Positions 1,028-13,573 of a stretch of DNA of 13,613 bases are shown one piece after another; positions within the stretch are counted from its first letter, which is position 1; each line of letters begins with the position of its first letter. The translations under genes were made by a program, and so were the position numbers. A model generated the notes under the pieces. That model ran no database searches. It saw only the letters and a program-made list of their open reading frames with translations, and had not been told where the DNA came from. Origin of the DNA: Candidatus Oleincola secundus (GTDB taxonomy: Bacteria; Atribacterota; Phoenicimicrobiia; Phoenicimicrobiales; Stramentimicrobiaceae); assembly GCA_018400815.1 (NCBI GenBank), contig JAGYLS010000045.1, positions 1 to 13,613 on the forward strand, given 5' to 3'.

Positions 1028-1129
1028 GGAGAGGTCTTGCCACAAGTAGACATTGAAAAAATAGAGAGTCCATGCTAAAAGTTGGAATTGAAAAAATGGA
1101 GAGGTCTTGCCACAAGTAGACATTGAAAA
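1028..1129 (+). ncRNA. Type III antitoxin RNA (ToxI/antiQ-like), about 2.9 tandem 35-nt units
   Basis: Units at 1028-1062, 1063-1097 and 1098-1129. Units 1 and 3 are identical over 32 nt (GGAGAGGTCTTGCCACAAGTAGACATTGAAAA), and unit 2 matches at 26/35. The array lies between the promoter and the terminator upstream of a toxN-like gene. Linkers are A-rich. Confidence 0.88.
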
Positions 1130-1158
1130 GCGACCAAATATTTGGTCGCTTTATTTTT
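1127..1158 (+). terminator. Intrinsic terminator between antitoxin array and toxin gene
   Basis: Perfect palindrome AAAGCGACCAAAT/ATTTGGTCGCTTT (1127-1152) followed by ATTTTT. This is the canonical position in type III TA loci. Confidence 0.88.
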
Positions 1159-1175
1159 ATACTGTAGGAGAAATT

Positions 1176-1658
1176 ATGAAATTATACTATGTTGATGAAG
1201 ATTATATTAATGAATTAAGAAATGTAGATGAGAGAGTATTATTAAATAAATCCACTCGTCCTTATTTAGGAGTTGTATTATCTATTAATGATCTTAATTA
1301 TTTTGTCCCCTTAAGTTCCCCTAAAGAAAATAAAAAACTAAATAATCAACTATCAATAAAATTGTTTGAGGTTAATAATATTCAAAATAGATTAGGATAT
1401 CTATTATTTTTAAATATGATACCTGTTCCTGATAAATATCTTTCTAAAATAGATATGCAATACATAAAGGAGCAAGATTTAGAATATTATAACTTATTAA
1501 CTAACCAATTAATTTTTATTAGGCAAGAAAATCAAAGAATCGTAAATAAAGCCCAAAAAGTATATAAAAATGCTGTGATAAAAAAAGTTTCATTTTTTGA
1601 ATCAATGTGTGTAGATTATTTAGCATTGGAAAGATATGTGAAAGATTTAAAACAGTAA
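1176..1658 (+). CDS. toxN: Type III TA toxin, ToxN/AbiQ-family endoribonuclease (160 aa)
   Basis: Family motifs MKLYYVDEDYINELR, RPYLGVVL, YFVPLSSPK, LFLNMIPVP and the C-terminal CVDYLALE. RBS AGGAG at 1166-1170 precedes ATG 1176, so the ORF-track start at 1107 is unlikely. Confidence 0.9.
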   Translation: MKLYYVDEDYINELRNVDERVLLNKSTRPYLGVVLSINDLNYFVPLSSPKENKKLNNQLSIKLFEVNNIQNRLGYLLFLNMIPVPDKYLSKIDMQYIKEQDLEYYNLLTNQLIFIRQENQRIVNKAQKVYKNAVIKKVSFFESMCVDYLALERYVKDLKQ

Positions 1659-1925: not shown

Positions 1926-2453
1926 TCAAGACCATTCGCTTTCTAACATACTCATTTGCCATAAATTATAATATTCTCCATTTAATTTTCTAAAGTCTCT
2001 TTTTTCTCCTTCTTTTATAAATCCAATCTTTTTGTAACTTTTAATAGCTGATTTATTAAAGGCAAAAACACCTAATTCAATTCTGTGTAGTCCCAAATCT
2101 TCAAAAGCCTTTTTCAATAATTTCTTTATTATTTTAGGGCCTAATCCTTGGCCACGCATTTGCGGATCACCTACTAAAACTTTACTTAACGTGGCGGAAC
2201 AATTTTTAAAATCTATATTATTTAAAGCAATATGACCTATAATTTTTTTTGAATTATTTTCTTCAATGATAACTTTATAAATTATTTTACTAGAATTTTC
2301 TTTATTTGTGTCTTTAATATATTCCTTTAATTGTTCTTCATCTAGGGGATAATTAAAATCTGTACCTGCCCATTTGACTAAAAGTTCAGGAGAGTTTATC
2401 CAGTTTATTAATAAATCAAAATCTTTCTCCTCAAAATATTCAAACTTAATCAA
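1926..2453 (-). CDS. GNAT N-acetyltransferase, RimJ/RimL-like
   Basis: Acetyl-CoA motif RGQGLG, plus LGLHRIELGVFAFNKSAIKSYKKIGFIKEG and the MSMLESEW tail. TTG start with RBS AAGGAG (2461-2466). Confidence 0.88.
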   Translation of the reverse strand: MIKFEYFEEKDFDLLINWINSPELLVKWAGTDFNYPLDEEQLKEYIKDTNKENSSKIIYKVIIEENNSKKIIGHIALNNIDFKNCSATLSKVLVGDPQMRGQGLGPKIIKKLLKKAFEDLGLHRIELGVFAFNKSAIKSYKKIGFIKEGEKRDFRKLNGEYYNLWQMSMLESEWS

Positions 2454-2645
2454 TAAATTACTCCTTAAATAATAGGTTATTAACTATAAAAATTCAGTGA
2501 ATGTTGCAATATAAACAACCACTACAATTTTTTGATACTTTCTTCATCAACTTTCTATCTTAAATTTTCGATTTTTTATAAAGCGTTTTGTATTATCTAA
2601 ATAACTCTTTACAATTTACTGATTTTTAAGCTTTTGCTAATAGAT

Positions 2646-3302
2646 TTATGCAACTTTAATATTATAAGTAAATCTATGCACTTCATCATTAAATTTAAAT
2701 TCTGCCCAAATTTTATACATCCCTTTTTTAGGAAAATGAGCATAAAAGGTTGTAGAATCAGGTGATTCTGGGTGAACATGAATATAATCAGTTAATTGCT
2801 CATCAAATATAATCACATGTCCTAAAGCTCCTAAATAAGGTTGGGGAGTTAATTCTGTATTGAAAGTTAAAGGGACATGTTCATCTTCTTTAGCACTTAT
2901 AGAATTTAAAGTTACATGAACTCCTTTGTTAACTTTTACCCAATTTTTATCAGAATTTAAAGATGTTGTAGAGGTTATTTTATCTCCAATTTGCAGTTCA
3001 ATAGGATGAACGGAATACACATGGTTTTTTGGTGTAACATCAACAAAAGCCTGGTAAGTTCCTGGCTCTAATTGTTGGTTAATTATAAATAAACCTTCAT
3101 GCTTTTTTTGAGGGTGTAGGTGGTAATATTTCTCCATGTCATTAGATACTAAAACGAAATGCATTTCTTTTTCATGCATAGTATCTAATAATGGGGCATT
3201 ATTAAATTCATCTTCTAACGTAATTTCTATATTACCATCTCTATATACAACATTTGCTTTAATTTCGGGTTTGTTTGAATGATATTCATGATTATGATTC
3301 AT
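2646..3302 (-). CDS. His-rich putative metal-binding protein, fourth gene of the cop cluster (218 aa)
   Basis: RBS AAGGAGG (3311-3317) precedes ATG 3302. N-terminus MNHNHEYH, with motifs MHEKEMH...YYHLHP and YLGALGH...YIHVHP. Co-oriented directly after copZ. Confidence 0.75.
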   Translation of the reverse strand: MNHNHEYHSNKPEIKANVVYRDGNIEITLEDEFNNAPLLDTMHEKEMHFVLVSNDMEKYYHLHPQKKHEGLFIINQQLEPGTYQAFVDVTPKNHVYSVHPIELQIGDKITSTTSLNSDKNWVKVNKGVHVTLNSISAKEDEHVPLTFNTELTPQPYLGALGHVIIFDEQLTDYIHVHPESPDSTTFYAHFPKKGMYKIWAEFKFNDEVHRFTYNIKVA

Positions 3303-3329
3303 ATTTTTATCCTCCTTAATTTTTAATAA

Positions 3330-3354
3330 GGGCATATCATTAAACGATATGCCC
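3330..3354 (-). terminator. Stem-loop after copZ (weak terminator or processing/stability element)
   Basis: GGGCATATC-N7-GATATGCCC, followed on the minus strand only by TTATT. Confidence 0.5.
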
Positions 3355-3365
3355 AACTATTTAAA

Positions 3366-3575
3366 TTATTTAATTACATCGTAACCTTGATCTTCAATAG
3401 CTTCTTTAAAGTCGTTGAAAGCTACTTGATTTTCATCAAATTCAACTTCCACATTCCCATTCGCCAAGCTTACTTCTGAAGATGTTACACCATCTAATCC
3501 ATTTAATGCTTTTTCAATTGAATGCTTGCAATGGTCACAGCTCATACCTTCTACATTAATAACTTCGTTAGTCAA
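3366..3575 (-). CDS. copZ: Copper chaperone CopZ (69 aa)
   Basis: HMA motif GMSCDHC and C-terminal AIEDQGYDV. The RBS AAGGAGG (3584-3590) overlaps the track's GTG, so the in-frame TTG at 3575 is the likelier start. Confidence 0.93.
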   Translation of the reverse strand: MTNEVINVEGMSCDHCKHSIEKALNGLDGVTSSEVSLANGNVEVEFDENQVAFNDFKEAIEDQGYDVIK

Positions 3576-3608
3576 TGTTGTCACCTCCTTTCAAGAAATA
3601 TAAGATTC

Positions 3609-5996
3609 TTATAATTTCATACGTTTTAGACGTAAAGCGTTTGTGACAACACTTACAGAACTTAAAGCCATTGCTGCTCCCGCAACCCAAGGTGCTAGCA
3701 GACCAATTGCTGCTATAGGGATACCTGCAACATTGTAACCAAACGCCCAAAATAGATTTTGGCGAATATTACGAATTGTAGATTTACTTGCTTTTATTGC
3801 TTTTGGAATTAATAAAAGGTCTCCTCCTAAAATAGTTATATCAGCAGCTTCGATTGCAACTTCTGTACCTGTACCAATGGCAATACCAATATCTGCTTTA
3901 ACTAGTGCTGGAGCATCATTGACACCATCTCCAACCATAGCTACTTTTTTACCTTCAGATTGAATTTCTGCTACTTTAGAAGCTTTTTCTTCTGGTAAAA
4001 CCTCTGCAATAATCGTGTCTATACCAACTTGTTTTGCTATTGCTTGTGCGGTACGTTTGTTATCACCAGTTAACATAGCAACTTCAATACCTAATTCATG
4101 AAGTTTTTGAATAGCTTGTTGGGCAGTATCTTTAACTGTATCAGCTACAGCGACAACCCCTCTCAATTCGTTATCTACGCTTATAAGCATTGCAGTTTTT
4201 CCTTCTTTTTCAAATTGAGCGAGATTTGTTTCAGCTTCATTAGTTTGGATTCCTTTTTCACTCATTAGTTTTCGATTTCCGACAAAAAGTTCTTTACCAT
4301 CAATTGTTGCATTTATACCGCGCCCTGGTATAGCTTCAAAATGGTCTACTTCTAAAAATTCTAATGATTTTTCTTTAGCATAACTTACGATAGCTTCAGC
4401 TAGTGGGTGTTCAGAACCTTTTTCTGCACTAGCTAACAATTGTAATGTTTGATCATCTCCACTAAAATCAGTGACTTCAGGTGTGCCATTTGTTATAGTG
4501 CCAGTTTTATCTAAAACAACTGTATTAATAGCGTGTGTACCTTCAATGTGTTCTCCACCTTTAAATAGAATGCCATTTTCAGCAGCTTTTCCGGTACCCA
4601 CCATTATAGAAGTAGGCGTAGCTAAGCCTAACGCACAAGGACAAGCGATAACTAATACTGCTATTGCAGCAACTAAGGCTGGTTCAAATTGTCCCGGCTG
4701 AACTAATGAAATCCATATAATAAATGTGAAAATCGCGATACCTACAACGATAGGTACAAAATATCCAGAAATAATATCTGCTAGTCTTTGTATTGGCGCT
4801 TTAGAACCTTGCGCTTCTTCGACAACTTTAACAATGGAGGCAAGAGCTGTATCTTTACCAACTTTTGTTGCTTCAACAGTAATTGCTCCATTTTTATTCA
4901 TTGTTGATCCTATAACATTATCATTTTGCATTTTTTCAACAGGAATAGATTCACCTGTCAACATTGACTCGTCAATTGAAGTCATACCTTTAATTATTTT
5001 GCCATCTACTGGTATTTTTTCTCCTGGTTTGATAACTAAATAGTCTCCTTCTTTTACCTCACTTAAAGGAACCATAGTCTCTTCACCGTTGCGTAATATA
5101 CGTGCTTCTTTAGCTTGTAAATTCAACAATTTACTTAACGCATTTGTTGTTTGTGTTTTAGCACGTGCTTCTAAATACTTTCCGAAAAGAATTAAAGTAA
5201 TTAATACAGCACTTGTTTCAAAATATAGGTGTGGCTCATAATTTGTATTAATTAACCACTTAATCGATTCATAAATACTATAAAAGAAGGCTGCGCTTGT
5301 ACCTAAAGCGACAAGAACATCCATATTTGCTGACCCATTACGAAGGTTTTTATAAGCGCCTACATAAAATTGCCAACCAATAACAAATTGAACAGGCGTT
5401 GCTAATACAAATTGGAACCACGGGTTCATAAATATATGTGGTATTTGAATACCAAATAAATGAACGAACATTGTCATTAACAATGGAGCTGCTAAAACAG
5501 CTGAAACAACTAATTTAATTAACTGTCGTTTTAATTGTTTTTCTTTTTGGGAACTTTTTTCTGATGCTTCTTTTTTAGGTTGTGCCTCATACCCTAGGTT
5601 TTTAATACGTTGTTGAAATTCATCTACAGACGTCATATCAGGGTTGTATTCTACAGTAGCACTTTCTGTGGTTAAATTAACTGTAGCCTTATTTACACCT
5701 GAGATTCGATTTAAAACTTTTTCGATTTTATTCGAACAAGCTGCACACGTCATTCCCATTACATCGAGATCCACTTTTTCGGTTAAAACTCCATAACCTG
5801 TTTTTTGAATTGTATTTGCAATATCTTCTAATGATGTAACATTGGGGTTATATTCAATTGTAGCTTTCTCTGTAGAAGGATTTACATTAGCGTTAACTTC
5901 ATCTAATTTATTTAGATTTTTTTCTACTTTATTCGAGCAAGCTGCACATGTCATGCCTGTGATACCTAATGAGGTTTTTTTAATATTTTCACTCAA
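3609..5996 (-). CDS. copA: Cu(I)-exporting P1B-1 ATPase CopA
   Basis: Two GMTCAAC metal-binding domains, TGES, CPC, DKTGT, SEHP, GDGVND, YN and MALSS motifs. RBS AGGAGG at 6007-6012. Confidence 0.96.
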
Positions 5997-6010
5997 TTAT
6001 TTCTTTCCTC

Positions 6011-6286
6011 CTATTTTGAAAATTGTTTTAATACAACCATCAATTCTTTGATACTTTCTTCTCCGTTGCCATTTTTAATACCTTCACTTACACAATTAGA
6101 TATATGGTCTTCAGTTACTATAAAACCCACTTGTTTTAGGGCTGATTGTATTGCTGTTATTTGTACTAGTACATCTATACAATATCTATCTTCTGCTATC
6201 ATTGATTGTAAACCGCGCATTTGTCCTTCTAATCTTTTGAGTCTATTGAGCAATGCGTCATTGTTTTTAACAGTAGTAGTGTTCAA
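6011..6286 (-). CDS. csoR: Copper-sensing repressor CsoR
   Basis: LLNRLKRLEGQMRG and the Cys-His-Cys ligand set (RYCIDVL...DHISNCV). RBS GAGGAGG (6294-6300) favours TTG 6286 over GTG 6292. Confidence 0.92.
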   Translation of the reverse strand: MNTTTVKNNDALLNRLKRLEGQMRGLQSMIAEDRYCIDVLVQITAIQSALKQVGFIVTEDHISNCVSEGIKNGNGEESIKELMVVLKQFSK

Positions 6287-6302
6287 TTTCACCCCTCCTC
6301 AT

Positions 6303-6319
6303 ATACCCTAACGGGGTAT
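6303..6319. promoter_or_regulatory. CsoR operator 1
   Basis: ATACCCTAACGGGGTAT: ATACC...GGTAT dyad with C/G tracts, typical of Firmicute CsoR operators. Adjacent to the csoR RBS. Confidence 0.85.
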
Positions 6320-6334
6320 CTCTTGTTGGAATCT

Positions 6335-6363
6335 ATATTATACCCCTAGTAGGTATAAGTCAA
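6335..6363 (-). promoter_or_regulatory. cop operon promoter with CsoR operator 2 in its spacer
   Basis: Minus-strand TTGACT (6363-6358), 17 nt, TAATAT (6340-6335). Dyad TTATACCCCTAGTAGGTATAA at 6338-6358. Confidence 0.78.
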
Positions 6364-6460
6364 TACAAAAGTTTCATATAAAAAATTAATATTTATAGTT
6401 TGTTTTAAGAGGTACACTTGTATAAAATGTATGCTAAAACTTATATTAGGAGAGATATAT

Positions 6461-6736
6461 TTGGATAAAAATATACAACTTGAGCTTTACACAAGACCTA
6501 CATGCTCTGATTGCCAAGAATCAAAAAGGTATTTAAACTCTCAAGAGATTAGTTATAGTCATAAAGATGTAAGTCAAAATTTGGACTTAGAAGAAGAAAT
6601 GAAAAAAATATCAGGCAACCGAATTGTTCCCTTATTTGTTTTTTATAAAAAAATTTTTTGGGGTAAAAAAAAGTTGTTTAAATATTACGTGGGATTTGAA
6701 AATAACAAAAAAGATATATTAAATATATTGGAATAA
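6461..6736 (+). CDS. Glutaredoxin/NrdH-like redoxin (91 aa)
   Basis: LYTRPTCSDC (CxxC), cis-Pro motif RIVP and late VGF motif. RBS AGGAGA (6448-6453) precedes TTG 6461. Confidence 0.82.
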   Translation: MDKNIQLELYTRPTCSDCQESKRYLNSQEISYSHKDVSQNLDLEEEMKKISGNRIVPLFVFYKKIFWGKKKLFKYYVGFENNKKDILNILE

Positions 6737-6780
6737 TTAAATAAACAGCCATTATTAAAAAATAATGGCTGTTTATTTAA
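6737..6780. terminator. Bidirectional terminator between redoxin and czcD
   Basis: Perfect 20-bp inverted repeat TTAAATAAACAGCCATTATT-aaaa-AATAATGGCTGTTTATTTAA, filling the gap between the convergent stop codons. Confidence 0.85.
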
Positions 6781-7718
6781 TGATGATGTTGACTGTCTTC
6801 TTCTTTCACGATACAAAACAATTTTTCACTATGATTATTGTTAGAAGTTTCAGTCTGTATTGTGACATGTTGAATATTTTGATGATTGAGTTCATGTTCT
6901 ATACGTTTAAGTAAAAACTCATTTTCAGTAATGGTCATTGTATCTTCTACAACAATATGACAAGATAACGCGTTTAATCCGCTAGTTACTGACCAAACAT
7001 GAAAGTCATGAATATTTTTAACTTCTTTGAATTTTTTAATAGTTTTAATAATGTCTTTTGTATTTATATTGCTTGGTGCTCCCTCCATTAATACATGAAG
7101 ACTTGATTTTGTTACATAAAAGCCGCTACGTAGTACTAAAATTGCTACAATCACACTTGCTAAAGGATCCGCCCACCCCCATCTAAAAAATATAATGAGA
7201 AGGGCTGCTATAACTGCACCTATAGATCCAAGCATGTCGCTTATTACATGCAAATATGCTCCACGCATATTTAAGTTTTCTTCTACATCGCTCCCGCGCA
7301 GCATTATCCAAGCCACAATAATATTAATAAACAAGCCTACCAAGGCGATAATTAACATGCCTGTAGAAGCTACCTCAGGGGGGTTTTTAAATCTCTCAAT
7401 AGCTTCATAAAAAATATAGATAGCTATTAACATCAAAGTAATACCATTAAGTACAGCTGCTAGTATTTCAAACCTTTTGTAGCCAAAAGTTTTATTTGTA
7501 TTAGCTTGCTTCGCTCCTAAAGTAAATGCAATTAAAGCAATACCTAAAGAAATAGAATCACTTAACATATGACCAGCATCTGAAATTAACGCAAGACTGT
7601 TAGTAAAGAAACCACCTAACCCTTCTACAATCATGTAACTTGTAATAATAATAAAACTAATTAATAAAGTCTTTTTGTTCGCGCCATGTGTATGATTATG
7701 ATTGTGATCGTTTTCCAT
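6777..7718 (-). CDS. czcD: CDF-family Zn/Co/Cd efflux transporter (CzcD/CzrB-like)
   Basis: SLALISDAGHMLSD, TFGYKRFEILAA, NMRGAYLHVISD, HDFHVW and HVTIQ motifs. His-rich termini. RBS GAGGAGG at 7725-7731. Confidence 0.93.
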   Translation of the reverse strand: MENDHNHNHTHGANKKTLLISFIIITSYMIVEGLGGFFTNSLALISDAGHMLSDSISLGIALIAFTLGAKQANTNKTFGYKRFEILAAVLNGITLMLIAIYIFYEAIERFKNPPEVASTGMLIIALVGLFINIIVAWIMLRGSDVEENLNMRGAYLHVISDMLGSIGAVIAALLIIFFRWGWADPLASVIVAILVLRSGFYVTKSSLHVLMEGAPSNINTKDIIKTIKKFKEVKNIHDFHVWSVTSGLNALSCHIVVEDTMTITENEFLLKRIEHELNHQNIQHVTIQTETSNNNHSEKLFCIVKEEDSQHHH

Positions 7719-7831
7719 TTAATCCCTCCTCTTTTTAATGATGAAAAATATTTTCTATAATTTGAATTTTTGTTTTTATAACTATAGAGTTAAAAAATAT
7801 AAAATTTCAATTAATGTTTTGTTACTCGAAG

Positions 7832-7900
7832 AAAATCATACTAACTTATGAATATATGCTCATATATTCATAAGTTAGTATGATTTTTATCCTTTGTCAA
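7832..7900 (-). promoter_or_regulatory. czcD promoter with ArsR/SmtB (CzrA-type) operator inside a 27-2-27 palindrome
   Basis: Minus-strand TTGACA (7900-7895), 17 nt, TAACTT (7877-7872). The palindrome at 7832-7887 contains TATGAATATATGCTCATATAT, which resembles CzrA boxes. Confidence 0.7.
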
Positions 7901-8045
7901 TATAGAAATGCTTTGTATTTTGTATATTAAATAAAAACCCTACTTTGCTTTGGACAGTAGTGGGATTTTTGCATATGATAAACCACACTTCACTTGCTAA
8001 ATATTAACTATATTATAATTAACAAGTGATAATTTCTTTTTAGAG

Positions 8046-8087
8046 AAAATAATGTATTCACGCCTTTAGGCGTGAATACATTATTTT
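8046..8087 (-). terminator. Intrinsic terminator of the par-like gene
   Basis: Perfect 20-bp inverted repeat AAAATAATGTATTCACGCCT-tt-AGGCGTGAATACATTATTTT overlapping the stop codon. Confidence 0.85.
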
Positions 8088-8569
8088 TTTTTGAATAGTT
8101 TAGAAAAGATAGATTGTTTTTGTTCATTTTTTTTTGATGCTTTTGGAGTAATGATATCTTCTTTTGAATCTATATTATCAGTTTCTATTTTTTTGGTATT
8201 ACTTAATATATTTTGGCTATTTAAATTCAAAGATTGTTCTTGTTTTAATGCAATTGTTAAATCGTCAATTTGTCGATTCTTTTGTCGAATTTCTGATTCT
8301 AAATGCTCTATGTATTTATCGATATAACTGCTATATTGGTTATTTAATGATTCTGTTTTGTTTGTCGATTTTTCATCAAATTTTGTCGATTCTTTTGTCG
8401 TTTTTTTATTTAAAATTGTTTTTAGATAATCTATTGTATTATCATCTATTAATGATTTGTTACCTACTTTGTTTACCTTCAAATTTGAAGGTAAACTTTT
8501 TAAATGATAATGAATTGTTTGTTTAGAGACATCTAAAAGTTCAGAAACTTCCTTTACAGTTTTCATCAA
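8081..8569 (-). CDS. Plasmid replication-associated HTH / coiled-coil protein (pSK1 Par-like)
   Basis: N-terminal HTH MKTVKEVSELLDVSKQTIHYHLK, coiled coil IEHLESEIRQKNRQIDDLTIALKQEQSL and C-terminal SIFSKLF. RBS AAGGAGA at 8579-8585. Lies directly downstream of a rep gene end. Confidence 0.75.
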   Translation of the reverse strand: MMKTVKEVSELLDVSKQTIHYHLKSLPSNLKVNKVGNKSLIDDNTIDYLKTILNKKTTKESTKFDEKSTNKTESLNNQYSSYIDKYIEHLESEIRQKNRQIDDLTIALKQEQSLNLNSQNILSNTKKIETDNIDSKEDIITPKASKKNEQKQSIFSKLFKKK

Positions 8570-8584
8570 ATAACTGGGTCTCCT

Positions 8585-8852
8585 TTACTTTTTCATTTTT
8601 TGTAAAAACGCTTGACGTTCTTCTTCTGTATACGCAGATGTCTTAGATGTGGTTGGTTCATAAGTGTTATTTTTTAACCATTGTGGCGTCATTTCACGGC
8701 TTATATATTGTTTTGGTTTGCCTGTACTTATCATATTAGATTGTCGTTTCGAATGAATACGTTTCTCAGGTTCAAAAGAAAATTCTAACCATTCAATCTT
8801 TCGTCCTTTTTTAGCTTTAATTTTATTAATATTGAGATTTTTAAATAAAAAG
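8585..8852 (-). pseudogene. rep: 3' remnant of a Rep_3-type plasmid replication initiator, truncated by IS257
   Basis: FKNLNINKIKAKKGRKIEWLEFSF and REMTPQWL resemble staphylococcal Rep_3 C-termini. The first 12 residues of the track ORF come from the IS end. Confidence 0.75.
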
Positions 8853-9641
8853 GGTTCTGTTGCAAAGTAAAAAATATAGCTAATCACTAATATATCATGT
8901 CAGTGTTCGTTTAACTTGCTAGCATGATGCTAATTTCGTGGCATGGGGAAAATCCGTAGATCTGAAGAGACCTACGGTTCTTTTTATATAGAGCGTAAAT
9001 ACATTCAATACCTTTTAAAGTATTCTTTGCCGTATTGATACTTTGATATCTTGTCTTTCTTACTTTAATATGACGGTGATCTTGCTCAATGAGGTTATTC
9101 AGATATTTCGATGTACAATGACAGTCAGGTTTAAGTTTAAAAGCTTTAATTATTTTAGCCATTGCTGCCTTCGTTGAAGGTGCCTGATCTGTAACTACCT
9201 TTTGAGGCTTACCAAATTGTTTAATGAGACGTTTGATAAACGCATATGCTGAATGATTATCTCGTTGCTTACGCAACCAAATATCTAATGTATGTCCCTC
9301 TGCATCAATGGCACGATATAAATAGCTCCATTTTCCTTTTATTTTGATGTACGTCTCATCAATACGCCATTTGTAATAAGCTTTTTTATGCTTTTTCTTC
9401 CAAATTTGATATAAAATTGGGGCATATTCTTGAACCCAACGGTAGATCGTTGAATGATGAACGTTTACACCACGTTCTCTTAATATTTCAGATATATCAC
9501 GATAGCTCAATGCATATCTTAGATAGTAGCCAACGGCTACAGTGATAACATCCTTGTTAAATTGTTTATATCTGAAATAGTTCATACAGAAGACTCCTTT
9601 TTGTTAAAATTATATTATAAATTCAACTTTGCAACAGAACC
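8853..9641 (-). mobile_element. IS257/IS431 (IS6 family), 789 bp
   Basis: Terminal inverted repeats GGTTCTGTTGCAAAGT (8853-8868) and ACTTTGCAACAGAACC (9626-9641). The flanks ATAAAAAG and ATTTAGAA are not a target duplication. Confidence 0.96.
8911..9585 (-). CDS. tnp: IS257/IS431 DDE transposase (224 aa)
   Basis: MNYFRYKQFNKDVITVAVGYYLRY, WRIDETYIKIKG, NNLIEQDHRHIK. Full length and in frame. Confidence 0.97.
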   Translation of the reverse strand: MNYFRYKQFNKDVITVAVGYYLRYALSYRDISEILRERGVNVHHSTIYRWVQEYAPILYQIWKKKHKKAYYKWRIDETYIKIKGKWSYLYRAIDAEGHTLDIWLRKQRDNHSAYAFIKRLIKQFGKPQKVVTDQAPSTKAAMAKIIKAFKLKPDCHCTSKYLNNLIEQDHRHIKVRKTRYQSINTAKNTLKGIECIYALYKKNRRSLQIYGFSPCHEISIMLAS

Positions 9642-9651
9642 ATTTAGAATA

Positions 9652-10572
<921 letters not shown>

Positions 10573-10603
10573 TTATTATAAATAATTGAAAGAAGGTGTC
10601 AAA

Positions 10604-12361
10604 ATGGCTAAATTACTAATAATGAGCGTAGTAAGCTTTTGTTTTATATTTCTATTGTTAGTATTTTTTAGGTATATATTAAAACGCTATTTTAATTATA
10701 GTTTAAATTATAAAGTTTGGTATCTAACTGTGCTTGCTGGATTAATTCCTTTTATCCCAATTAAATTCTCTTTTATAAAATTTAATAATGTGAATAATCA
10801 ATCGCCCACAGTTGAAAGTAGGTCACACGACTTGAACCATAACATAAATACCACCAAACCTGTTCAAGAGTTCACAACAGATATCCATAAGTTTAATTGG
10901 GATTCAATTGATAATATCTGCACAGTTATTTGGATAGTTTTGGTTATTATTTTAAGTTTTAAATTTTTGAAATCCTTATTATATCTTAAATATTTAAAGA
11001 GACAGTCACTTTATCTAAACGAAAATGAAAAAAATAAAATAGATACGATACTTTTCAACCATCAATATAAAAAAAATATTGTGATTCGAAAAGCAGAGAC
11101 TATTCAATCTCCAATAACTTTTTGGTATGGGAAATATATTATTTTGATTCCTAGTTCATATTTTAAAAGTGTAATTGACAAAAGACTAAAATATATAATA
11201 TTGCATGAATATGCTCATGCTAAAAATAGAGATACTTTACATTTAATTATCTTTAATATCTTCTCTATTGTTATGAGTTACAATCCATTAATACATATTG
11301 TAAAAAGAAAGATAATTCATGACAATGAAGTAGAAGCCGATAGATTTGTTCTTAATAATATTAACAAAAATGAATTTAAAACTTATGCGGAATCTATTAT
11401 GGACTCCGTATTAAATATTCCATTTTTTAATAAAAATATATTAAGCCATTCATTTAATGGTAAAAAGTCATTACTCAAAAGAAGATTAATTAATATAAAA
11501 GAAGCCAATTTGAAAAAACAGTCCAAATTAATTCCAATTTTTATTTGTATTTTTACTTTTTTGCTCATGGTAATTCAAAGCCAGTTTTTGATGGGGCAAT
11601 CCATAACTGATTATAATTATAAAAAGCCCTTACAGAACGATCACCAAATTTTAGATGAAAGTAAAAATTTTGGTTCAAATAGTGGATCTTTCGTCATGTA
11701 CAGCATGAAGAAAGACAAATACTATATTTATAATGAAAAAGAAAGTAGAAAGAGATATTCTCCTGATTCAACTTATAAAATTTATTTAGCGATGTTTGGA
11801 CTTGACCATCATATCATAAGTGATAAAAATTCACGTATGTCATGGAATCATAAACATTATCCTTTCGAGTCTTGGAATAAGGAACAAGATTTAAATACAG
11901 CAATGCAAAATTCAGTTAATTGGTACTTCGAACGTATTAGTAATCAAATACCAAAGAACTATACTGCGGCTCAACTCAAGCAATTAAATTATGGTAATGA
12001 AAACTTGGGAAGTTATAAAAGCTATTGGATGGAAGATAGTTTGAAAATATCTAATCTTGAACAAGTAATAGTTTTTAAAAATATGATGGAACAAAATAAC
12101 CATTTTAGTAAAAAAGCAAAGAATCAATTATCTTCTTCATTATTGATTAAGAAAAATGAAAAGTATGAACTGTATGGGAAAACAGGTACAGGTATAGTAA
12201 ACGGGAAGTATAATAATGGGTGGTTTGTAGGTTACGTAATTACAAATCATGATAAGTATTATTTTGCTACACATTTATCAGATGGAAAGCCGTCTGGGAA
12301 AAATGCTGAATTAATCAGTGAAAAAATATTAAAAGAAATGGGTGTTTTAAATGGCCAATAA
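10604..12361 (+). CDS. blaR1: Beta-lactam sensor/signal transducer BlaR1 (585 aa)
   Basis: M56 metalloprotease motif HEYAH, LKRRL cleavage region, sensor domain STYK/SVN/KTG. ATG 10604 follows GAAGGTG. Confidence 0.96.
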
Positions 12362-12731
12362 GCAAGTTGAAATATCTATGGCTGAATGGGATGTTATGAA
12401 TATAATATGGGATAAAAAATCAGTATCAGCTAATGAAATTGTAGTTGAAATTCAAAAATATAAAGAAGTTAGCGATAAAACGATTAGAACATTAATCACA
12501 AGACTATATAAAAAAGAGATTATAAAACGATACAAATCAGAGAATATTTATTTTTACTCATCAAATATTAAAGAAGACGATATTAAAATGAAAACTGCTA
12601 AAACCTTTCTTAATAAACTGTATGGAGGGGACATGAAAAGTTTAGTGCTGAATTTTGCGAAAAATGAAGAATTAAATAACAAAGAAATTGAAGAATTGCG
12701 AGACATTTTAAATGATATTAGTAAAAAGTAA
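12351..12731 (+). CDS. blaI: Penicillinase repressor BlaI
   Basis: [30 protein letters not shown] and SLVLNF motifs, 126 aa. Overlaps the blaR1 stop. Confidence 0.97.
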
Positions 12732-12779
12732 TTAGAGATATGTTTCAAACATAATACATATGTAAACTATGCTTGACTC

Positions 12780-12970
12780 TTATTAAATTAGTTTTGTTAA
12801 TAACATTTAAAATATTTTATTAAATATGAGAGTGTCCAGAAAATAACCATTTTCTGTACACTCTCTTTTTATATCTAGATATATAGCTAGTATACATATT
12901 TTAGTGTTCAATAACCCAACAGAAAATCTATGTTCATAAATATGGTTAGAATTAAGTTATGGTACAATGA
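12780..12970. other. Resolution (res) site region of the Tn552-family bin gene (boundaries approximate)
   Basis: Lies between blaI and bin. Contains the 17-bp dyad GAGAGTGTcCAGAAAAT-aacc-ATTTTCTGtACACTCTC (12828-12865) and further TGTTCA-type half sites. Confidence 0.65.
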
Positions 12971-12994
12971 AAATCTACATAGGAGGTTTGTATT

Positions 12995-13573
12995 TTGAAA
13001 ATAGGTTATGCAAGAGTCTCAACTGGTTTGCAAAATTTGAATTTGCAGGAAGATCGATTAAATCAATATGGTTGTGAAAAAATATTTAGCGATCACATAA
13101 GTGGATCAAAAAGTAAACGTCCTGGTTTAGATAAAGCCATTGAATTTGCGAGGTCAGGAGATACGATTGTTGTTTGGAGACTAGATAGATTAGGACGTAA
13201 CATGGAAGATTTAATCACATTAGTTAATGAACTTAATAATCGAGGCGTGAGTTTTCATAGTTTAGAAGAAAATATAACAATGGATAAATCAAGTTCTACA
13301 GGACAATTGTTATTTCATTTATTCGCAGCATTTGCAGAATTTGAACGTAATTTAATTTTAGAACGTTCTTCAGCGGGGCGAATTGCAGCTCGTGCTAGAG
13401 GACGTTATGGAGGTCGACCCGAAAAATTAAATAAACAAGATTTGACTTTACTCAAAACACTTTATGATAATGGAACCCCGATTAAAACTATTGCAGAGCA
13501 ATGGAAAGTTTCACGTACAACAATCTATCGTTATCTCAATAAGTTAAATAACCAAGAAAATAAAGATAAATAA
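12995..13573 (+). CDS. bin: Serine resolvase/invertase Bin (192 aa)
   Basis: GYARVST catalytic Ser, VWRLDRLGR, FAEFERNLI, GGRP and C-terminal HTH. RBS AGGAGG. Located downstream of blaI as in Tn552-like elements. Confidence 0.93.
   Translation: MKIGYARVSTGLQNLNLQEDRLNQYGCEKIFSDHISGSKSKRPGLDKAIEFARSGDTIVVWRLDRLGRNMEDLITLVNELNNRGVSFHSLEENITMDKSSSTGQLLFHLFAAFAEFERNLILERSSAGRIAARARGRYGGRPEKLNKQDLTLLKTLYDNGTPIKTIAEQWKVSRTTIYRYLNKLNNQENKDK

Follow-up and report, generated by a model that had tools for sequence, protein, structure and literature searches.

In loci of the toxIN/AbiQ family an array of short repeats, which encodes the RNA antitoxin, lies upstream of the toxin gene and on the same strand. 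The standard toxIN plan was set out by Blower 2012, in the part of that work available to us, and it is matched by the order of promoter, array, terminator and toxN in the locus reported here. In their accessible portions, papers from 2025 and 2026 describe the repeats of toxIN as near-identical and treat unlike repeats as a peculiarity of tenpIN. Some loci with greater variability between repeats are mentioned by Blower 2012, where, in the accessible sections, the consensus repeats alone are aligned. In this study we analyzed a tandem repeat array at positions 1028-1129 of a 13,613-nucleotide (nt) stretch of DNA (hereafter the window; contig JAGYLS010000045.1 of assembly GCA_018400815.1, recorded as Candidatus Oleincola secundus). 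Judged from its sequence, this element is the antitoxin array of a canonical toxIN/AbiQ-family type III toxin-antitoxin locus, and its three units follow each other in the order A-B-A. We consider it probable that A and B are isofunctional pseudoknots which both serve the single adjacent toxin, and that unlike neighbours are a habit of the family and not the outcome of capture.

Sequence and fold of the antitoxin units

Tandem Repeats Finder assigned the array a period of 35 nt, 2.9 copies and 73% matches. The repeats are arranged in tandem on the strand of the toxin gene and end 46 nt ahead of its ATG. Unit 1 (type A, 1028-1062, plus strand) has the stem 2 GUCU/AGAC. Unit 2 (type B, 1063-1097, plus strand) has the stem 2 UCCA/UGGA and the stem 1 UAG/CUA, for which it uses U1062. 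Unit 3 (type A, 1098-1129, plus strand) comprises 32 nt that match the first 32 nt of unit 1 exactly; its stem 1 UGG/CCA uses U1097, and its 3' end is an A-tract which abuts the terminator. In unit 1 only two of the three stem 1 pairs can form because the preceding base is an A and not a U. A weaker stem 1 in the first unit was also found in antiQ, in a Listeria array and in pAW63-type arrays.

A preliminary description of this DNA, made from the letters alone, had claimed that A and B differ in a way which keeps an H-type pseudoknot intact. The positions, pairs and strand order on which it relied were all verified on the sequence. Nine of the 35 positions are unlike in A and B, and eight of these nine are the two sides of four compensated pairs. 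In stem 1 (1097-1099 with 1110-1112 in A, 1062-1064 with 1075-1077 in B) one pair is swapped from G-C in A to A-U in B, which turns UGG/CCA into UAG/CUA. In stem 2 (1104-1107 with 1118-1121 in A, 1069-1072 with 1083-1086 in B) three pairs are swapped, G-C to U-A, U-A to C-G and U-A to A-U, and the C-G pair is kept. The strands run in the interleaved order stem 1a, stem 2a, stem 1b, stem 2b, which is that of an H-type pseudoknot. Position 1078 is the sole uncompensated change; the loops AGAG, UG and AAGU and the tail are common to A and B, with all loop and tail bases but one shared. Two additional mismatches between A and B at the 3' end mark the point where unit 3 enters the terminator. Between neighbouring units an identical tract of 11 nt remains.

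Among 300,000 random variants of A carrying nine substitutions, none had four or more compensated pairs and 86 had at least three. When the structure was left free, so that any pseudoknot of the family template valid in both units was accepted, none of 100,000 variants reached four pairs and 11 reached three. The differences between the units of one array thus amount to a natural compensatory-mutation experiment that supports the pseudoknot without probing. In the literature surveyed, which did not extend to Short 2013 (PNAS), Belanger & Moineau 2015 and the supplementary tables of Blower 2012, we came across no description of compensatory changes that distinguish the units within a single toxIN array.

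The window units also fit the ToxI template of Blower 2012, given in the section seen as stem 1a, a loop of 3-4 nt, stem 2a, a loop of 1-2 nt, stem 1b, a variable loop and stem 2b. For the family-wide comparison 34 units (30 of them distinct) from 14 loci sharing loop lengths were placed in an alignment of our own choosing, in which seven pairs were counted. Paired cells amounted to 97.6% compared with 69.3% in shuffles, a value attained by none of 500 shuffles, and the covariation score was 0.767 compared with 0.185. Six of the seven pairs changed on both sides, and sliding the 3' partner columns by 1-3 positions left at most 51% paired. One row of the alignment is off by one column, therefore these figures are slightly conservative. 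The A-G-U ahead of stem 2b was invariant or nearly so in the aligned units, which matches a guanine noted in the same section of Blower 2012. Covariation accordingly supports the pseudoknot fold beyond the window, and the 30 distinct units together with the compensation inside the array bear out the claim that the changes preserve it.

Mixed units are common in toxIN arrays

ToxN loci were collected from IMG/VR (30 loci), PLSDB, GTDB genomes and metagenomes. After removal of near-duplicates (L027, L030, L032, L038 and L041-L049), of a locus in which no array was found (L063) and of one with a single unit (L019), the survey comprised 40 arrays with 119 units. These were parsed by hand-curated coordinates, as automatic detection of pseudoknot chains gave noisy results where the flanks are AT-rich. 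Both stems were fully canonical in 110 of the 119 units. Stem 2 was non-identical within 29 of the 40 arrays: the pattern ABA occurred in 13, ABC in nine, AAB in three, AB (arrays of two units) in three and AAAAB in one, and the remaining 11 were homogeneous. The proteobacterial arrays in the survey were mostly homogeneous. At 60% identity the toxins fell into 27 clusters, and 18 of these included a mixed array. In 56 adjacent unit pairs of the same template, with 407 stem pairs in total, both sides had changed and still paired in 61 stem pairs, one side alone had changed in 10, and a non-pair was involved in eight. With each pattern taken once per toxin cluster, ABA was counted ten times, AAB three times and ABB not at all, so that 10 of the 13 counts had the odd unit in the centre (binomial test against one third, p 0.0016; the clusters are perhaps not fully independent).

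Since mixed arrays make up 29 of 40 and include ToxI_Bt of pAW63, they are a family trait and not a one-off capture. The window locus and the survey together indicate that toxIN, as tenpIN does, has non-identical repeats, and A-B-A heterogeneity is common in the toxIN family and not a sign of a second toxin. The premise of the preliminary description that ToxI repeats are usually near-identical agrees with what the papers from 2025 and 2026 state in the parts seen, and it does not hold in the survey. It also follows from the share of mixed arrays that strict repeat finders and consensus-based analyses will miss or flatten many loci.

Two kinds of unusual unit were encountered during the survey. 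Units with an insertion of 21-23 nt in the loop before stem 2b were present at L013:595-637 and L040:517-560, the insertion in L013 being a small hairpin; they resemble a hairpin insertion at one Clostridium locus described in the accessible part of Blower 2012. Locus L019 (G143:C1:2166655-2170059) encodes a ToxN homologue on a chromosome; the gene contains one in-frame TGA and is preceded by only a single ToxI-like unit, so that the locus is possibly decaying.

Conservation of both unit types between species

The same locus was found in Staphylococcus gallinarum, with the order A-B-A kept and a toxin that is 85% identical. Identity to the window was 67.5% in the promoter and leader, 80.9% in the terminator and ribosome-binding site and 84.7% in toxN DNA, where 46 of 160 third codon positions were changed (29%). 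In the array 100 of 102 positions were identical, and unit B was identical at 35 of 35. At the third-position rate about 10 changes would be expected in B, and rough arithmetic puts the chance of none at about 7e-6. Unit B is unchanged despite the 29% third-position change in toxN, therefore it is under selection. Both differences in the array are the same C-to-T change, one in each A copy, at the sole loop position where A and B are unlike. Units 1 and 3 thus vary in step, and B remains distinct from them. These comparisons argue that A and B are both under purifying selection and that B is a working part and not debris.

The exact array of 102 nt was present in 7 of 11 further loci examined, and the other four were truncated or partial. 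Toxins in PLSDB were either at least 99% identical (39 records) or less than 60% identical (184 records). Toxins of 63-92% identity exist in the protein collection, and the loci of this range which were compared are that of S. gallinarum and one truncated metagenome locus; among these comparable loci no array of A or of B alone was found in a close relative.

The complete conservation of B also bears on the idea that this unit is a spacer or decoy, or that its less stable stem 1 serves to adjust the release of the toxin. Its UAG/CUA, with one G-C pair instead of two, is indeed weaker than UGG/CCA of A, and a dependence of ToxIN activity on stability is a published theme (PMC5772629, seen in part). 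Yet no feature of a ToxI unit is missing from B, which keeps all of its 35 bases across species despite the 29% change at third positions of toxN, and we regard such a role as quite improbable.

The preliminary description had further proposed that unit B was acquired from a different system and gives cross-immunity to a second ToxN; cross-regulation of such a toxin was considered along with it. Some facts speak for this proposal. The distance between A and B (9 of 35 positions) is far larger than that of A between the two species (1 of 35), as would fit an import or an ancient split. Stem 2 of B and the loops next to it recur in antiQ and in L037 (unit 1), whose toxins are 34-37% identical to that of the window. 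However, the genome of the window (86% complete) holds one ToxN match and no second, and a single ToxN coding sequence was counted in the annotated 19.4 kb of one 28.4-kb plasmid copy. A and B agree in all loop and tail bases but one, B is conserved like A, and the mixed pattern recurs in 18 of 27 toxin clusters. Besides, single crossovers should favour AAB or ABB, whereas the counts per cluster were dominated by ABA. In TenpIN, both non-identical repeats were reported to neutralise the same toxin and both were present in the purified complex (PMC13682666, seen in part), so unlike repeats can serve one toxin. Capture for a second ToxN is thus barely credible, and we did not retain this proposal.

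We prefer the explanation that A and B represent a single pseudoknot in two versions of equal function. Their shared loops and tails would be the parts that contact the toxin in solved complexes, and their helices would have been rewritten by compensated changes. By analogy to ToxIN_Pa, ToxIN_Bt and AbiQ, the terminator would let only some transcripts run on into toxN, and ToxN would cut the precursor within the A-tract of each unit. Three RNAs may then keep three toxins in a closed inactive complex until the RNA supply fails, as upon plasmid loss or phage shut-off. Some points weigh against this explanation. How A and B are processed, bind and act as antitoxins is extrapolated from relatives which are 36-40% identical. 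Moreover, the survey was non-random, as loci were reached via likeness to the window toxin, and its stems were parsed by hand.

Possible reasons for unlike neighbours

The recurrence of A-B-A raises the question of how a cell holds a short essential repeat array at fixed length. The preliminary description had suggested that mixed units resist array collapse. This fits the data and is our leading, though unproven and tentative, reason: an array without identical neighbours could not easily gain or lose units by slippage. In the accessible part of a review (PMC5086642) antiQ with 0.8 repeat is described as inviable, and one repeat added or removed lowered phage resistance. Units 1 and 3 are the only perfect repeat in the window array, and a deletion between them leaves less than one unit, reportedly inviable for antiQ; on the stability reading the copy number would therefore be locked at three.

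Copy number does vary in homogeneous arrays. The record lengths of near-identical small plasmids of E. coli and Salmonella with such arrays cluster at about 6042-6044, 6078-6080 and 6115 bp. By direct count the 6042-bp and 6078-bp plasmids of E. coli (L064 and L067) have four and five core copies, which differ by whole units of 36 nt, and the spacing suggests six copies in the 6115-bp records. The last unit in arrays of this type is a variant with its own compensated stem 2 of six pairs. No unit-sized gaps were seen in the 38 of 39 Staphylococcus records covering at least 80% of the query, nor in 38 Bacillus records with ABA-type arrays.

Several observations weigh against stability as the reason. 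Eleven of the 40 arrays are homogeneous and still have about three units. Slippage would hardly be blocked in several ABA arrays because a single compensated pair differs, and in the window the identical 11-nt tract persists between neighbours. The copy-number comparison is also confounded, as the variable E. coli arrays have more units. It is more doubtful still whether toxIN arrays are selected against identical neighbours, with A-B-A as a copy-number lock in which deletion between units 1 and 3 is lethal via the freed toxin. If this were true, the copy-number lock would hold as a general principle in the design of RNA antitoxins encoded by repeats, and the picture of near-identical toxIN repeats would derive from a few Gram-negative models.

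Neutral compensatory drift requires no selection for difference. Short arrays would homogenise poorly and helices would tolerate paired changes, with the toxin pinning loops and tails. Across the family 16.2% of stem bases differ compared with 9-15% in loops; stems thus differ little more than loops. Much of the pattern could therefore be due to simple compensatory drift, which counts against isofunctional units kept unlike by selection. ABC arrays are common (9 of 40), and many differences are single compensated pairs. Drift does not predict, however, the central position of the odd unit in 10 of 13 counts (p 0.0016), nor units 1 and 3 that are identical and yet change together between species. 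Moreover, simple slippage from an array of two units should yield AAB or ABB and not ABA. On balance we consider drift as the whole explanation rather unlikely.

A further possibility is that unlike helices insulate folding: in the precursor, the 3' strand of a stem would be kept from pairing with the 5' strand in the unit that follows, and units would fold singly. In a nested-fold model of eight unit orders, ABA had the fewest expected inter-unit pairs (9.65 versus 10.0-14.3), and B beside B mispaired strongly, with a probability of 0.56-0.66. Of 51 neighbouring pairs that differ in stem 2, 30 have no cross-helix that can pair fully. The other 21, however, keep one fully pairing cross-helix, and A beside A scarcely showed the mispair (0.003-0.012). 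The summed native stem 2 probability of ABA (1.19) was also below those of ABB (1.28) and BBA (1.30), and the model ignores pseudoknots and protein. In addition, ToxI_Pa-type arrays of 4-6 identical units exist and are reported to work in the literature seen in part. Insulation is hence an unlikely cause of the mixed order.

Anatomy of the locus and its toxin

A promoter-like site was located at 985-1013 on the plus strand, with TTGACA, a 17-nt spacer, TAAAAT and TG ahead of the -10 element. With 11 of 12 consensus matches it was the best of 10 sites detected, by consensus match only, and transcription would probably start near 1020-1021. An intrinsic terminator lies in the gap between array and toxin gene (1127-1161, plus strand), with an 11-pair stem (1127-1152), a 4-nt loop and a T-rich run. 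It was the only terminator-like site detected in the region, compared with 0.2 expected in shuffles, and it stands directly 3' of the array. A ribosome-binding site, AGGAG, is read at 1166-1170 on the plus strand, 5 nt ahead of the ATG. It is followed by the toxN/abiQ-family toxin gene (1176-1658, plus strand), which encodes 160 amino acids and was assigned by PF13958 and structure matches. The locus therefore combines a toxin of the family, an upstream array on the same strand, a promoter and a terminator (both by consensus only), the pseudoknot spacing and the catalytic region of toxIN loci. An Rfam scan of 900-1300 returned eight weak matches, none near the gathering score and none to a type III antitoxin family.

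Three runs labelled as RNA contain the stretch as contigs, which show the presence of DNA or RNA and not transcript ends or processing. The contigs from RNA libraries break within the array because repeats do so in assemblies, and their depth rises downstream of about 1035, which is suggestive only. Two RNA runs searched as raw reads gave no reads on the locus, which is no gauge of transcription.

The toxin matched PF13958 over its full length (E 2.4e-38, 132 bits with a cut-off of 25, residues 1-156 on profile positions 1-157). Its closest structure match was ToxN of B. thuringiensis (4ATO, 1e-28), followed by AbiQ (4GLK, 3.4e-21), and 2XD0 and 7D8O were matched as well. The proposal that a ToxI/antiQ-type antitoxin array stands beside its toxin was confirmed by the assignment to the ToxN/AbiQ family through PF13958, 4ATO and 4GLK. 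Residues S47, S48 and K50 were invariant among 29 aligned homologues, and by position they appear equivalent to Thr52, Ser53 and Lys55 of ToxN_Pa and to Ser51 of AbiQ. In the RefSeq copies the toxin coding sequence has 552 bases and corresponds to an open reading frame that starts with TTG at 1107 (183 amino acids; 1107-1658 of the window) and shares bases with unit 3 and with the terminator. Both the Pfam alignment and the structure alignments begin at the ATG at 1176, therefore the RefSeq start is probably 23 codons too early, and it probably hides the array.

A solitary unit in Bacillus phages

In a sensitive search of 50,697 phage records with the array, one place was matched in each of three records, which belong to the Bacillus phages FADO and PK-3. 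The FADO unit (L069:900-945; OM236516.1, about 101486-101523) is single and intergenic and has A-type stems and loops; the copy in PK-3 is L110. From stem 1a to the start of the tail the phage unit differs from unit A by two bases, both in the variable loop. The same core without the A-tract occurs in phage PJN02 (L109). The gene after the phage unit, fado_160, was considered as a ToxN relative and rejected, as it had no Pfam match and an hhalign probability of 0.4%. In IMG/VR the 15-mers of A and B gave 23 and 16 matches, respectively; all are chance matches and none extends into the rest of a unit.

A ToxI-like repeat sequence in a phage genome was described as pseudo-ToxI for phage PhiTE of Pectobacterium (PLoS Genet 2012, PMC3475682, seen in part). 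The unit of the Bacillus phages resembles this pseudo-ToxI and is present as a single copy. It may be an antitoxin mimic, and if such a mimic worked, the A-type unit would be a target of phage counter-defence. The suggestion that mixed units resist phage mimicry was nevertheless not upheld: an A-type unit does exist in phages, yet whichever type is mimicked, the toxin neutralised should be the same.

Plasmid context of the locus

The 751 bases around the locus occur with at least 99% identity in 39 PLSDB plasmids from eight named Staphylococcus species, and all 30 rows among the matches listed for this query were 100% identical. The genes at 1926-13573 of the window encode a GNAT acetyltransferase, a P-type heavy-metal ATPase, a glutaredoxin, a cation-efflux protein, an IS6-family transposase, the products of blaZ, blaR1 and blaI, and a resolvase. 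The assembly has about 2 Mb in 213 contigs and belongs to a small phylum, in which a search of 86 genomes for ToxN matched that of the window and no other; in a sample of 401 genomes from the class of S. gallinarum three were matched. The same DNA is also found under records labelled Cuspidothrix and Arcobacter. The contig is probably staphylococcal plasmid DNA that was mis-binned or is a contaminant, and the locus is carried on a staphylococcal beta-lactamase and heavy-metal resistance plasmid. The position of the locus beside blaZ, blaR1, blaI and metal-resistance genes makes it a candidate for a role in plasmid maintenance, in phage defence or in both.

On the S. epidermidis plasmid NZ_CP033781.1 (L068:1462-1902) and at L011:1001-1441 the array is missing, and so are the initial 27 or 12 codons of toxN. 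Unrelated DNA replaces the lost part, and the break in L068 is near an aminoglycoside-resistance gene. Antitoxin loss was encountered only in company with a truncated toxin.

A survey of plasmids from methicillin-resistant Staphylococcus aureus in 2023 reported a toxin from the ToxN/AbiQ family on two plasmids and, in the part seen, no repeats nearby (PMC10135026). The staphylococcal plasmid ToxN/AbiQ toxin now has a candidate antitoxin, and if the gene of that survey is the same, its array was overlooked.

Comparison with known systems

AbiQ/antiQ on the L. lactis plasmid pSRQ900 has 2.8-2.9 copies of a 35-nt unit, with a terminator behind them and the toxin after it, as in the window. The antiQ RNA is homologous to the window units, with the same spacing of stems and loops, G-G/C-C in stem 1, AGU before stem 2b and a tail that begins with AUUGA. 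The stem 2 core of antiQ is shared with unit B. A likeness of B to antiQ had been noted in the preliminary description, and it is confirmed by the stem 2 UCCAA/UUGGA and the tail starting with AUUGA on pSRQ900. However, the units of antiQ are near-identical, with one difference in unit 1, whereas both helices of the middle unit in the window are rewritten. AbiQ and the window toxin are about 36% identical, and the host of the window locus is a staphylococcal resistance plasmid.

The closest solved toxin is that of ToxIN_Bt from B. thuringiensis pAW63 (PDB 4ATO), where 2.9 units of 34 nt are found. The ToxI_Bt units of pAW63 are also non-identical, with a compensated stem 2 (ACCU/AGGU, ACUC/GAGU and GCCU/AGGC), and relatives in B. 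mycoides and B. cytotoxicus have the pattern ABA. ToxIN_Bt differs from the window in unit sequence and loop lengths. In B. anthracis plasmid records of about 95 kb we observed a match of about 80 bases with 86% identity to the last ToxI unit and terminator of a pAW63-type locus. No feature is annotated there, and the match looks like an orphan array remnant.

ToxIN_Pa of P. atrosepticum has the same locus plan and the same two-tailed H-type pseudoknot as the window, and its complex is described as a 3:3 triangle in the literature seen in part. In contrast to the window, ToxIN_Pa and its E. coli relatives have four to six near-identical units of 36 nt, the number of which varies between near-identical plasmids. 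Cleavage of the ToxIN_Pa type takes place at AA^AU and not in an A-run.

TenpIN (Sci Rep 2025 and PLoS Pathog 2026, seen in part) differs from the window by another toxin family, longer units and a 2:2 complex. Similar to the window, its units differ in sequence and the pseudoknot is kept. By analogy, TenpIN would thus be the nearest experimental precedent for the isofunction of A and B.

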